DNA of 64,000 nucleotides, from the NCBI GenBank assembly GCA_045578525.1, contig JAZNKL010000006.1, positions 3,419 to 67,418 of the forward strand. Reading direction: 5' to 3'. Under the pieces are notes generated by a model that saw nothing but the letters and a program-made list of their open reading frames with translations, searched no databases and was not told where the DNA came from. The position numbers and the translations under genes are program-made. Origin of the DNA: Candidatus Nanosyncoccus sp. Lineage in GTDB: Bacteria > Patescibacteriota > Saccharimonadia > Saccharimonadales > Saccharimonadaceae. The first letter of the stretch is position 1. Every line of letters starts with the position of its first letter. Below are positions 32,443 to 41,638 of the stretch, piece after piece.

Positions 32443-32519
32443 GCGAATGTAGCTCAGTTGTTTAGAGCGCTTCCTTGCCAAGGAAGAGGTCGAGAGTTAG
32501 AGTCTCTTCATTCGCACCA
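32443..32519 (+). tRNA. tRNA-Gly(GCC) with T19/A56 instead of G19/C56
   Basis: CTTCC-TT-GCC-AA-GGAAG; D-loop AGTTGTTTA; T-loop TTAGAGT; CCA. Confidence 0.92.
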
Positions 32520-32631
32520 CTATAAATGGCTTTGCCATTTATTTTTTGCTTCGCAAAAAAGGCCTTACGGCCTAAGTGGTGCTTGGACTTCGTGATCGCA
32601 CCACTATAAATGGCTTTGCCATTTATTTTTT
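32512..32631 (+). repeat. Exact 36-bp direct repeat of the tRNA-Gly 3' end plus terminator, 84 bp apart
   Basis: TCGCACCACTATAAATGGCTTTGCCATTTATTTTTT at 32512 and 32596. Confidence 0.92.
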
Positions 32632-34986: not shown

Positions 34987-35060
34987 GGCGCTGTGGCGGA
35001 GTGGTTACGCAGAGGTCTGCAAAACCTTGTACACCGGTTCAATTCCGGTCGGCGCCTCCA
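34987..35060 (+). tRNA. tRNA-Cys(GCA)
   Basis: GAGGT-CT-GCA-AA-ACCTT; U73; CCA. Confidence 0.96.
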
Positions 35061-35131
35061 CGAAAACTGAAAACAAATTTTCGTTTTTGTGTTCGGCGCC
35101 TTGACTGCCTTTGGCAGAGGCGGCGCCTCCA
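35049..35131 (+). repeat. Re-iterated tRNA-Cys 3' end
   Basis: CGGCGCCTCCA at 35050 and 35121; TCGGCGCCT at 35093; CTGCC-TTT-GGCAG hairpin between. Confidence 0.7.
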
Positions 35132-38942: not shown

Positions 38943-39018
38943 GGCTCTGTAGCTCAGTTGGTAGAGCAGAGGCCTGAAGAGCCTTGTGTCACTGGTTCAA
39001 GTCCAGTCGGAGCCACCA
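38943..39018 (+). tRNA. tRNA-Phe(GAA)
   Basis: GAGGC-CT-GAA-GA-GCCTT; CCA. Confidence 0.97.
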
Positions 39019-39170
39019 GATTTTATATGAGTCGGCATTTTCGCCGATTTTTTAGTGGTAAAATTCTGTTAAGTACCTTGTAGTAATAGTATTCATTTTT
39101 GGAGCATGTTTGCAACGAAAAACTGCCAAAAATGCGGTTTTCACCACTGTTAGAATGTCTGTTAATATCC
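39013..39170 (+). repeat. Inter-cassette element copy 1
   Basis: CCACCA, TCGGC/GCCGA-T6, CTGTTAAGTACCTTG (39066), TGTTAATATCC. Confidence 0.8.
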
Positions 39171-39176
39171 TAAAAT

Positions 39177-39818
39177 CTATGCTACCCCATCCCATTCGTC
39201 ATAAAACTCTTTCAAAAATTCTTTCATGAACCTATGTCTATGCTCCGCCATGTTTCTAGCAGTTTCGGTATTCATTAAATCTTTAAGTTTTAAGAGTTTC
39301 TCATAAAAATGAGTTATTGTCGTACCTGTATGTTTATAATACTCGTCGGCAGACATGTTCTCTTTGTGCTTCATGTCGGGAATATGCATCGGCACATTAT
39401 GATTCCCACCATAAGCGAATGTTCTACCTATTCCAATTGCTCCAATCGCATCCAGTCTGTCTGCGTCTTGTACAATTTTCCCTTCTATCGTCTCTGGAGT
39501 GATGGTATCTTTTCCCTTGAACGACACTTGAGAAATGATATGACAAACTTGTTCTATTTCTTCGTCAGAAACACCATGACGTTCTAGGAAAGACTTTGCG
39601 TTATGGAATGGATCCTCTTCACGTCCTACTAACTTATAATCATCTACATCATGTAATAATGCGCTCAAATAAACTAATTTTGTATTACACTCTTCAAATC
39701 TCGCAATATGTTTCGATAAATTATACACCCTTAAAGTATGATAATAATCATGCCCACTGAAATCATTCTTAAAAAACTCTTTCACATACTCCAAAGTTTC
39801 ATCCACTATGTTTTTCAA
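39177..39818 (-). CDS. HD-domain phosphohydrolase (YedJ-like)
   Basis: GHDYYH, ALLHDVDD, VQDADRLDAIG, HFYEKLLKL; AT-rich. Confidence 0.9.
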   Translation of the reverse strand: MKNIVDETLEYVKEFFKNDFSGHDYYHTLRVYNLSKHIARFEECNTKLVYLSALLHDVDDYKLVGREEDPFHNAKSFLERHGVSDEEIEQVCHIISQVSFKGKDTITPETIEGKIVQDADRLDAIGAIGIGRTFAYGGNHNVPMHIPDMKHKENMSADEYYKHTGTTITHFYEKLLKLKDLMNTETARNMAEHRHRFMKEFLKEFYDEWDGVA

Positions 39819-39888
39819 CCTTATTTCTCCTGTTTTATATATCTATCATAACACGAGACGCTCTTACTTTTATCTCTTCTCTATGCAG

Positions 39889-40072
39889 TGTTAAAGCCTG
39901 AGCAATTCGCCCCCACCACAACGTATTTAAATCGGCAAAATGGCCGATTTTTTAGTAGTAAATCTCTGTTAAGTACCTTGCAGGTTCTAGGGTGCTGTTT
40001 TGCAACGATTTTGCACAAAAAAATGCGTCCGAAAACGCATTTTTGCCCCTATAAAATCGTCTGTTAATACCC
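39889..40072 (+). repeat. Inter-cassette element copy 2
   Basis: TGTTAAAGCC, CAATTCGCCCCCACCA, TCGGC/GCCGA-T6, CTGTTAAGTACCTTG (39966), TGTTAATACCC. Confidence 0.8.
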
Positions 40073-41122
40073 TTCAAGTCTGTTCTTCAACACCTGTAAA
40101 AATTTTTCATATTGTTGAGAATATAAAAACCTTACACGTTTCTGAATCGACCCATTTGGTACTTGACCACGATACGATAAAACCGTATCTTCAATCGCTC
40201 TTTGGAATCTTTTGCACTGTCTTTCATTATATGATAATCCGCCAGTTTCATCTCCGTAGCCAATTTTGTTGGTGGCTTTTTCTGTCAATAGTGGTGGCCT
40301 TCCGACTCTTTGGCTGATTTTAGGATTCTCATCTAAAATTCTGGATATAATTTCAACATAATTTCCTATATCCTTATTATCTATGTAAAATACCATTGCG
40401 TCAGATCTGTCTGGAAATTGATTAATCTTGAATTCATACGGCAATTCAGCTTCTTTGCAGGCGTCTACAAATTTATTAGCAATTTCGAACGTATCTCCAG
40501 GTTCAGCGTTTAAATACAATCTACCGTCCGCATTAATACGTTTTTCTAAACCGAGTTTCTCGTCTCTCGACGAATAGTACATCCAGCCTGGCTCACTGTG
40601 CCTGTCGTATCTTAGGTGATCGAATGCCACATCAAAACCATCGTTGTCTCCATTGAAGCAATCTCTCAGTAATTCTGCTTGTGTTAACGCGTTCCGTCCG
40701 CTCTTGAGGTAGTTGTGTATTTTTTTCAGTGCATTGAAAGTATCGCCGCGCCCATATTTCTCAATTGCAGTTTGGGCATCTAAATCAATTATATTTTGCT
40801 TCCACTCTTCAAAACGCGCGCTCTCGAATCTATCTCTTGCTGGATTCTGGCTTGCCCTTATTCCTGGGTGCCATCTCTCTACATTGGACGTCATAATGGC
40901 ATCATAAAAGCCTTTTTTCTTGCTTAGATCGCAGTGCACGTACTCAACCACGGCTGAGGCTATCGTATCGAAATCCTCAGATGGTTTTTCAAATTTTGAA
41001 GGATCTATGTCCTTATTCTGTTTCTGGTATTTATTCGCCATAGCAGCGACGCTCTCCCAGCCAGTAGGCTGCAAGTTGCCTGGTGATTCTTCAGATGAAG
41101 TCTTTTCGTAATGATCTAGCAT
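40064..41122 (-). CDS. Protein with a HopA1-like C-terminal domain
   Basis: GRLYLNA..FVDACKEAELPYEFKI..RSDAMVFYI..PPLLT..IGYG. Confidence 0.5.
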   Translation of the reverse strand: MLDHYEKTSSEESPGNLQPTGWESVAAMANKYQKQNKDIDPSKFEKPSEDFDTIASAVVEYVHCDLSKKKGFYDAIMTSNVERWHPGIRASQNPARDRFESARFEEWKQNIIDLDAQTAIEKYGRGDTFNALKKIHNYLKSGRNALTQAELLRDCFNGDNDGFDVAFDHLRYDRHSEPGWMYYSSRDEKLGLEKRINADGRLYLNAEPGDTFEIANKFVDACKEAELPYEFKINQFPDRSDAMVFYIDNKDIGNYVEIISRILDENPKISQRVGRPPLLTEKATNKIGYGDETGGLSYNERQCKRFQRAIEDTVLSYRGQVPNGSIQKRVRFLYSQQYEKFLQVLKNRLEGY

Positions 41123-41177
41123 ATCTTTATTATACTATATTTTCGCGTAGCTTCACTTGAATATCCTCTCTATAAAT

Positions 41178-41270
41178 TGTTAATACCCGCCCAATTCGCC
41201 CCCCACCAAATTTTATTTAACTCGGCTTTTAGCCGATTTTTTAGTGGAAGACCTTGCTAAAGTGTTAGAA
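41178..41270 (+). repeat. Inter-cassette element copy 3 (shortened)
   Basis: TGTTAATACCC, CAATTCGCCCCCCACCA, TCGGC/GCCGA-T6, ACCTTG, TGTTAGAA. Confidence 0.75.
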
Positions 41271-41287
41271 CTTATCTCTCAAAAAAG

Positions 41288-41638
41288 CTAATCATCATCG
41301 TCATCGCCAAGAAGGTCTTGCTCATTTTCGGCAACAAGCTCCGTTGTACTATCCAGCTCACCCAATAAGCTCAACGGGTAGATGATAGCAAATAAGCCAA
41401 AAATAATAATAGAGACATAGCATACAAAATACACCCACGTGTTATCGTGTAAAAAGTTGGCTGGAACGTTTAAAAGAACAGCAACTGCTACCGCAATTGC
41501 AGCTGCAGAAATAATCCATGTCTTGCCAATTTTTGCGGCAGTACTAATTGCTTTACGAATACACATCGTATTTGCCGCAACGACTCCAAGAATCGCCGTT
41601 ATATCTTCGTTATTTTTTGATTTATTTGAATTAGCCAT
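41288..41638 (-). CDS. Small 2-TM membrane protein
   Basis: AAGGAGG SD; acidic tail. Confidence 0.75.
   Translation of the reverse strand: MANSNKSKNNEDITAILGVVAANTMCIRKAISTAAKIGKTWIISAAAIAVAVAVLLNVPANFLHDNTWVYFVCYVSIIIFGLFAIIYPLSLLGELDSTTELVAENEQDLLGDDDDD

Follow-up and report, generated by a model that had tools for sequence, protein, structure and literature searches.

We characterized a 64,000-nucleotide stretch of the genome of a Candidatus Nanosyncoccus sp. (contig JAZNKL010000006.1; hereafter the window), in which the gene for tRNA-Phe(gaa) is followed by a row of single genes separated by a recurring junction element. Our analysis makes it probable that this row is a stack of mini-islands that large serine recombinases (LSRs) inserted at the tRNA-Phe 3´ end, and that the junctions between the islands are stubs of integrase gene 3´ ends. 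The array is flanked by HisRS and upp, in a ruminant-gut genome (G000) of 745 kb, 9 contigs, and 41% GC. We refer to the parts of the junction as A, the upstream arm, inside which lies box 1 (TGTTAA); the core, (C)CACCA; B, a hairpin followed by T6; and C, the remainder, with box 2 (CTGTTAAGTACC) and box 3 (TCTGTTAATACC). In the window these parts are arranged as follows.

38943..39018, plus strand: tRNA-Phe(gaa), the head of the array (ARAGORN; Rfam tRNA, 69.7 bits).

39013-39018, plus strand: the final bases of tRNA-Phe, (C)CACCA, the block in common with the element (attB side).

39019..39176, minus strand: B1-C1, apparent LSR-gene relic comprising the final ~53 codons before the crossover, based on nucleotide alignment and profile; hairpin at 39032-39047 followed by T6, box 2 at 39066-39080, box 3 at 39159-39171.

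39177..39818, minus strand: cargo 1, an HD-domain phosphohydrolase of 213 aa with its own promoter (Pfam PF01966, E=7e-12).

39838..39912, minus strand: A2, the element-side arm, apparent ~25-codon integrase tail past the crossover, reading WWGRIAQALTLHREEIKVRASRVMIDI and a stop on the minus strand; box 1, TGTTAA, at 39889-39894.

39913..39918, plus strand: CCACCA, putative crossover block of junction 2, where a 95%-identity comparison breaks between GCCCC and CACCA.

39919..40075, minus strand: B2-C2, second apparent integrase-tail relic (z=12.9), reading ...VLTDDFIGAK.. / ..ARYLTEIYY, a stop, and KIGHFADLNTLWW; hairpin at 39932-39947, box 2 at 39966-39980, box 3 at 40060-40072.

40064..41122, minus strand: cargo 2, 352 aa, weakly matching the HopA1 family (Pfam PF17914; 24.1 bits, cut-off 22.7).

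41155..41208, minus strand: A3 and its putative crossover block (CCACCA, 41203-41208); box 1 at 41178-41183; minus strand GRIGRVLTIYREDIQVKLRENIV and a stop.

41209..41287, minus strand: B3 with a truncated, eroded C; hairpin at 41222-41237 followed by T6; borders the chromosomal backbone.

41288..41638, minus strand: a membrane-like ORF of 116 aa with no family match and no A arm beyond its far side.

The LSRs of related bacteria point to the origin of the junction. These proteins, with Resolvase, Recombinase, and Zn-ribbon domains, were found in 50 of 81 genus genomes, and every intact LSR gene examined is convergent on a tRNA gene, with the end of its ORF lying antisense within the tRNA. 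About 13 tRNA types are involved, including Phe (L012), Ile, Gln, Val-tac, Pro, Leu, Ser, Gly, and Arg. Directly after A-CCACCA, relatives carry integrase tails in graded decay. At one end of this series is a frameshifted, nearly complete integrase (L242/L334; E values of 9e-48 and 2e-158, with 60-66% identity across 125-345 aa). Further along are an integrase-tail relic with 79% identity on a metagenome contig (L372) and an open 58-codon relic, RVVRDLTAKTIEVEPYPWLDFLEKSSKKLAPELAKLLNSELQGRNGEKSGFYKIWW (L013:6771-6935), of which 55 aa align at 67% identity with aa 506-560 of integrase L337. This open relic is colinear with B-C of the window over all ~160 nt (z=13-14 against shuffles), and the nucleotide alignment of B1-C1 with L013:6783-6945 gives z=13.8.

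The reading frame of the integrase tail can be followed through the junction. B1-C1 reads ...RILTDILTVVKTAFLAVFRCKHAPKMNTITTRYLTEFYH, a stop, and KIGENADSYKIWW on the minus strand, and its profile alignment ends in register at the W of the core. In minus-strand codons, the hairpin corresponds to IGENAD (copy 1), box 2 to (R)YLTE, and box 3 to (R)VLTD, and the three TGTTAA boxes coincide with Leu-Thr codons (TTA ACA). Past the core, A reads WWGRIGQALTIYREDI... and comes to a stop ~25 codons further; ORFs that are open across the junction exist in public data (P0004 and P0007). A first tblastn search with integrase tails mostly returned trivial antisense-tRNA matches and was redone without the tRNA part, and a broad profile of 13 integrases was too diluted (at most 13 bits). 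A profile built from five tails was then applied to B-C alone, with the tRNA part removed, in 68 copies. It reached at least 8 bits in 22 of them, always on the minus strand and ending at the core W, compared with none of 2040 shuffled translations. An in-frame TAA just ahead of the hairpin is common to 20 of 22 copies in an unbiased set, and the family thus spreads as a stub that is dead already, its copies going back to an integrase-less lineage.

Judged from sequence, the junction is homologous to the 3´ ends of LSR genes that straddle tRNA junctions, with the last ~55 codons, the crossover block, and a ~25-codon tail in the same order, and it is attP-derived. It is not an attC site, a dif site, or a terminator module, and an Rfam scan matched the tRNA alone, with no known RNA family or small RNA at the junction. 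Two other coding interpretations were rejected. A plus-strand ORF across A-B-C is open in copy 2, but its homologues in 121 genomes are short and stop-ridden, and no long ORF was found for which the minus-strand C peptide could be the tail of an intact gene.

The repeat structure had been described in a first-pass annotation of the window, made from the letters alone, and this description proved accurate. CCACCA, 13 nt, TCGGC-N5/6-GCCGA, and T6 occur in three copies (39013, 39913, and 41203); with 0.01 occurrences of the hairpin pattern expected per window, chance is excluded. CTGTTAAGTACCTTG lies 48 nt past the CCA at both 39066 and 39966, the TGTTAA boxes are at the positions claimed, and copies 1 and 2 extend for another ~160 nt, as far as the stop codon of the minus-strand gene that follows. 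Ahead of copies 2 and 3 lie ~50 conserved nt with CAATTCGCCCCC(C)ACCA at their end. The annotation regarded this as a tRNA-like end that is not that of tRNA-Phe, and indeed the tRNA scan finds no tRNA in the genome ending in CGCCCCCACCA, the final 11 nt of A2, which form the 3´ end of tRNA-Met(cat) in relatives. Each unit does hold one minus-strand ORF, while the "different composition" attributed to these genes is weak, with GC contents of 36%, 40%, and 40% against 41% in the flanks.

Comparison of the tRNA-Phe site across ~35 species demonstrates that its content varies. Between zero and at least five cassettes with varied cargo are followed by conserved tRNA-Lys/Val or upp-MgsA. In G011 the site is empty, with tRNA-Phe, tRNA-Lys, and tRNA-Val contiguous, and in G013 it is occupied, with B-C-gene-A-CCACCA placed directly after the CCA of tRNA-Phe. 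Serial site-specific capture at a tRNA 3´ end, as proposed at first pass, fits this variation, and the two findings named there as speaking against capture were not encountered: gene content is not fixed across relatives, and the module is not a dispersed repeat, as blastn places it in this genome at this locus only.

Individual cassettes can be traced between species and between tRNA genes, and this ties the element to gene gain. The segment 39156-39913 of the window (box 3, the HD gene, and A) is 94.9% identical at the nucleotide level to a second-position segment in the tRNA-Phe array of another species, and the HisRS region of the species sharing this cassette is just 72% identical. The right break of this comparison falls exactly between GCCCC and CACCA, and the left break falls 4 nt ahead of box 3, where the other species has no C body. 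A complete B-C-cargo-A unit, 92% identical, lies behind tRNA-Phe in one species and behind tRNA-Val(cac) in another. A second B-C-cargo unit (91-92% identical) was found behind tRNA-Met, behind tRNA-Phe, and at an internal junction, with an A arm variant that differs in one of the three places, and a cassette without B-C is 95% identical between tRNA-Phe and tRNA-Met arrays. Identity breaks mostly at the core, and in independent cassette pairs it does so between GCCCC and CACCA or right after CCACCA, with unrelated flanks on the outside. These comparisons demonstrate precise insertion at one short core.

The HopA1-like gene has a different history in G023 (L026, G023:C3). There, a gene with 86% nucleotide identity lies inside a multi-gene minus-strand cluster. 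We rejected it as an instance of the same cassette at tRNA-Met, with the coding region alone in common. As this cluster lacks the junction module, the HopA1-like gene also travels outside the cassette format.

Not all identity breaks are at the core. Some are inside the conserved module, at box 1, box 2, or the B/C border, and such breakpoints favor an explanation by homologous recombination only. In this scenario, the junctions would be old fossils acting as portable homology, and cassettes would be swapped by DNA uptake and RecA-type recombination. Natural competence has been reported for Saccharibacteria, and many array-bearing genomes, including this one, have no LSR at all. We nevertheless consider recombination of this kind an improbable sole cause, since the same module abuts the CCA end exactly in no fewer than six unrelated tRNA genes and whole units stop exactly at CCACCA with non-homologous DNA beyond, junctions that homologous recombination cannot create. 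Homologous recombination may well complement LSR insertion by shuffling cassettes afterwards, and is no replacement for it.

According to the LSR mechanism that we propose, two intact mini-islands (B-C, cargo, and A) and one eroded island would have been inserted successively at the 3´ end of tRNA-Phe. The enzymes would be large serine recombinases of a Saccharibacteria family, encoded on the opposite strand beside the tRNA by a gene that crosses its own attachment site. C and B would then be the ~55 codons that lead up to the crossover, (C)CACCA the short block common to tRNA 3´ ends, and A the ~25-codon tail past the crossover, with an end that mimics tRNA-Met. Cassettes would lack the integrase body and would consist of an attP-like module of ~240 nt plus a single cargo gene under a promoter of its own. 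Each fresh insertion at the tRNA end would displace the older units outward, giving rise to A-core-B junctions between cargos. We infer that an LSR acting in trans is the joining enzyme and that the crossover takes place inside (C)CACCA. The B3 layer is the oldest of the stack, and the 116-aa ORF next to it may be the cargo of the eroded third unit; in a relative with the same synteny (L254), a terminal A-core-B directly precedes upp.

Several other tRNA loci in relatives carry related arrangements. In L112 (G007:C3:36000-49800), ~9 kb between tRNA-Phe and tRNA-Lys/Val contain three ORFs of 519-537 aa opposite to the tRNA strand, and the tRNA-proximal ORF is an intact LSR ending antisense in tRNA-Phe. 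In L114 (G002:C1:2934-9500), an intact 532-aa LSR of another subfamily is located at tRNA-Ile(gat), with an older B-C-cargo-A unit displaced 5.8 kb outward; the integrase's own arm ends ...GGTTCAAGAAGCGTCACACTTCTTCCACCA. In four loci (L076, L216, L248, and L273), a ~50-nt insert between tRNA-Phe and B ends in a second tRNA-Phe 3´ end (..GCTTCGCGAGCGGCGCCACCA). The insert has no cargo and represents a scar left by a different element family.

A number of observations weigh against LSR insertion as the origin of the array. Three relic subfamilies all end at box 3, and some breakpoints are at TGTTAA boxes or the B/C border and not at the core; a simple one-crossover model predicts neither. Classical LSRs recombine attP with attB only, so that repeated insertion at an occupied tRNA end needs relaxed specificity, as in Ccr enzymes. 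No clear attP-type dyad was found around the core, with a value of 0.32 for CCACCA as the center against a median of 0.25 in a copy set that is mixed with tRNA heads; the hairpin itself is the only strong dyad found near the core. With the integrase-tail profile, the copies in the window itself reach only ~4 bits, and thus their link to integrases is transitive, via DNA homology to better preserved copies. No LSR was found in the window or in the whole genome. Finally, a search of 121 genus genomes, 80 genome loci, 28 metagenome loci, and 1.84 billion representative proteins found no autonomous element with an integrase bearing this B-C/A tail, and the representative proteins gave only short ORF calls and spurious TPR matches for a parent integrase.

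Given a genome without an LSR, the array is either a fossil or mobilizable only in trans, and the locus is a derivative (scar or satellite) of an LSR element, not an autonomous member. The situation is similar at other arrays: in 80 array loci of 8 kb each, there is no recombinase ORF except one LSR of an unrelated family and one decayed LSR. Elsewhere in the genome, two short LSR C-terminal relics, 54-59% identical to aa 504-538 of L348, are found beside tRNA-Ser(cga) (C2:133887-134171). By tblastn, and setting aside antisense-tRNA matches, these are the sole integrase-derived coding remains in the genome; the B-C stubs of the window are too diverged to be detected in this way.

The only site-specific recombinase found in the genome is one Xer-like PF00589 protein (C7:73829-74359), far from the locus, which was identified in the genome-wide search for tyrosine recombinases that the first-pass annotation had suggested. 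That annotation saw in the TGTTAA boxes a resemblance to tyrosine-recombinase arms, noting that TTCTGTTAAGT agrees with the Escherichia coli XerD arm at 9 of 11 positions. On this reading, the single Xer protein or an unseen integrase would act on dif-like or arm-type boxes, as in IMEX or the pdif modules of Acinetobacter. The exact direct repeats of TGTTAATACCC at 40062 and 41178, which bracket the HopA1-like gene as described, are compatible with such an activity, as are breakpoints that fall at boxes or at most 5 nt away in three to four comparisons. The boxes, however, have no inverted partner arm: all six pair at no more than 4 of 11 positions across a 6-nt spacer, and none has an 11-6-11 dyad partner. 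They differ from the XerD arm by 4-7 mismatches in the register tested (a register that is shifted for some boxes), their orientation is direct and not inverted, and they fall on conserved Leu-Thr codons of the LSR gene. Moreover, the 80 array loci contain no tyrosine recombinase ORF of at least 150 aa. With the junction explained as a relic of an LSR gene 3´ end, we regard a tyrosine recombinase as very unlikely.

The layout itself, a row of single-gene units with one recurring site between them and no integrase nearby, recalls an integron or a CALIN, in which promoterless attC cassettes are captured by IntI. This reading is refuted on the defining features. The genome has no IntI-type gene beyond the Xer-like protein, and the element lacks attC symmetry, both absences, of symmetry and of an integrase in the window, having been noted at first pass. 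The junction is conserved in sequence (75-92% across species) and not as an imperfect palindrome, with a stem of only 5 bp. Each cassette has a promoter of its own, the opposite orientation is seen for 31 of 133 cargo ORFs, and tRNA 3´ ends rather than an attI anchor the array.

Although the boxes are not Xer sites, part of the original idea survives, in that several homology breakpoints are at boxes and boxes 2 and 3 co-vary as DNA. The 3´ ends of integrases L335-L341 contain two direct repeats of ~14 nt at about +50 and +144 from the core, which correspond to boxes 2 and 3. The two boxes of the same integrase are more alike (identity 0.74) than boxes from different integrases (0.65), a difference reached in 2 of 5000 permutations; the sequences compared are related to one another and were picked out manually. 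Inspection of L339 by eye shows the shared motif GCGTTnTGGCCCTTA in two different reading frames. Box 1 lies about -25 from the core, in the A arm, and the co-variation result covers boxes 2 and 3. This co-variation, together with the difference of frame in L339, hints at a role at the level of DNA, with sites contained in the integrase coding sequence. It is conceivable, if doubtful, that the ~240-nt junction is a working integrase-less cassette tag, with the boxes as direct-repeat sites in DNA that serve as secondary crossover or accessory-binding points. Such a tag would be the serine-recombinase counterpart of attC, and genes would be captured and reshuffled in trans at many tRNA CCA ends across Nanosyncoccus. 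Boxes acting as secondary sites would explain both the three relic lineages cut at box 3 and the exchanges that break at boxes.

The module is widespread within the genus, in which it is always part of a cassette array starting at a tRNA CCA end. Among 121 genomes sampled, 44 contain it at 75-92% identity, in arrays of 2-5 copies with a spacing of 0.6-1.3 kb, and public Saccharibacteria assemblies contain it in at least 119 stretches. Among 185,579 species genomes scanned for the exact pattern, the matches were solely Candidatus Saccharibacteria or Ca. Nanosyncoccus metagenome-assembled genomes, mostly from ruminant gut. About half of the copies (64 of 126) directly follow a tRNA end (Phe-gaa 25, Val-cac 11, Met-cat 11, Ile-gat 10, Ile-tat 6, Leu-caa 1), and the A arm directly precedes 47 of the 126. 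Metagenome contigs added one more copy directly after tRNA-Lys(ctt) and 28 further integrase-less arrays, among which there was no parent element and no circular contig. A viral origin was considered and rejected, as two pattern scans of IMG/VR gave chance matches only. Cargo across the arrays includes HD hydrolases, methyltransferases, NUDIX and GNAT proteins, and proteins with no assigned function. In the window, cargo 1 also matches an NCBIfam PRK10119-like phosphohydrolase (E=5e-29, under the cut-off), and the PADLOC defense models gave no match for the three cargo proteins.

Other tRNA genes in this genome are also followed by copies of tRNA ends. At 32512-32631 of the window, the 3´ end of tRNA-Gly(gcc) and a terminator (CGCACCACTATAAATGGCTTTGCCATTTATTTTTT) are repeated 85 nt downstream, just ahead of a minus-strand HNH operon, in what looks like another att-type scar of a different family. 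At 35050-35130, a copy of the tRNA-Cys 3´ end GGCGCCTCCA follows after about 70 nt, right in front of tRNA-Leu(taa), and this looks like a short empty scar. Outside the window, a copy of a tRNA-type 3´ end, ...ACTCCACCA (C4:38233-38370), is found about 40 nt past tRNA-Ile(gat) and may be the scar of yet another element family.

Full-text literature searches found no account of cassette arrays built by LSRs at tRNA genes of Saccharibacteria. Among described systems, the closest are the composite islands of staphylococcal cassette chromosomes (SCC) and the ssrA islands of Dehalococcoides. SCC and SCCmec elements are inserted at the 3´ end of rlmH by the LSRs CcrAB and CcrC, and form tandem arrays that include recombinase-less pseudo-SCC elements mobilizable in trans. 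The likeness is one of layout, as SCC elements target a protein gene, measure tens of kb, and have a recombinase gene that does not span the att site. The comparison with pseudo-SCC and composite islands has also been discussed for the ssrA islands (PMC3146451). In these islands, a CcrB-like serine recombinase of ~540 aa, DsiB, is encoded on the reverse strand directly beside attL (McMurdie et al., 2011; PMC3146451). The islands are tandem, parted by direct repeats of the tmRNA gene 3´ end, and have a six-gene integration module in ~10 kb; some lack the module and are treated as cis-mobilizable or fixed (PMC3146451). They use a single tmRNA target, with a T-loop crossover and a 20-bp repeat (PMC3146451). 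The match with our locus is again by layout, with the LSR of relatives beside a tRNA-type 3´ end and units in tandem. In Nanosyncoccus, in contrast, insertion involves many tRNAs, of which only the last 6-11 nt are shared with the element; the integrase ORF extends across the site into the tRNA, and each unit is a single-gene cassette of ~0.6-1.3 kb that keeps an integrase stub of ~80 codons.

The array shares with integrons a fixed entry point, tagged single-gene units with the newest nearest the entry, and the existence of recombinase-less arrays. It differs in its serine rather than tyrosine enzyme, in a site conserved in sequence rather than a folded attC, in cargo with its own promoters and in either orientation, and in the absence of attI and Pc. 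Integrases of the archaeal SSV1 type and intP/intX of myxophage Mx8 have attP within the ORF, and the integrase gene therefore has its 3´ end changed or split on integration. Those enzymes are tyrosine recombinases, while here the enzyme would be an LSR and only the last ~25 codons would be swapped for antisense tRNA sequence. The tycheposons of Prochlorococcus, of which 910 of 937 carry tyrosine recombinases and which have partial-tRNA repeats (Hackl et al., bioRxiv 10.1101/2020.12.28.424599), are likewise tRNA-anchored islands in streamlined genomes, with older elements pushed outward and degenerate cargo remnants that lack integrases (bioRxiv 10.1101/2020.12.28.424599). They are larger and have replication genes, whereas no tyrosine recombinase was found in the 80 array loci here, in which the repeat has just 6-11 nt in common with the ends of tRNAs.

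The genomes of Saccharibacteria and other bacteria of the candidate phyla radiation (CPR) are tiny, yet accessory genes vary between related species, and this locus and its relatives illustrate one route by which this could come about. A lineage-wide LSR family would use the CCA ends of many tRNA genes as an entry and leave behind rows of single-gene cassettes with their own promoters, which travel between species whose core genes are just ~70% identical. An integrase ORF that extends across its own attachment site and on into an antisense tRNA is also an unusual gene architecture. Natural pairs of LSRs and att sites with tRNA-end targets could serve as genetic tools in CPR bacteria. If integrase-less modules are indeed mobilized in trans, these arrays would constitute a serine-recombinase analogue of the integron.

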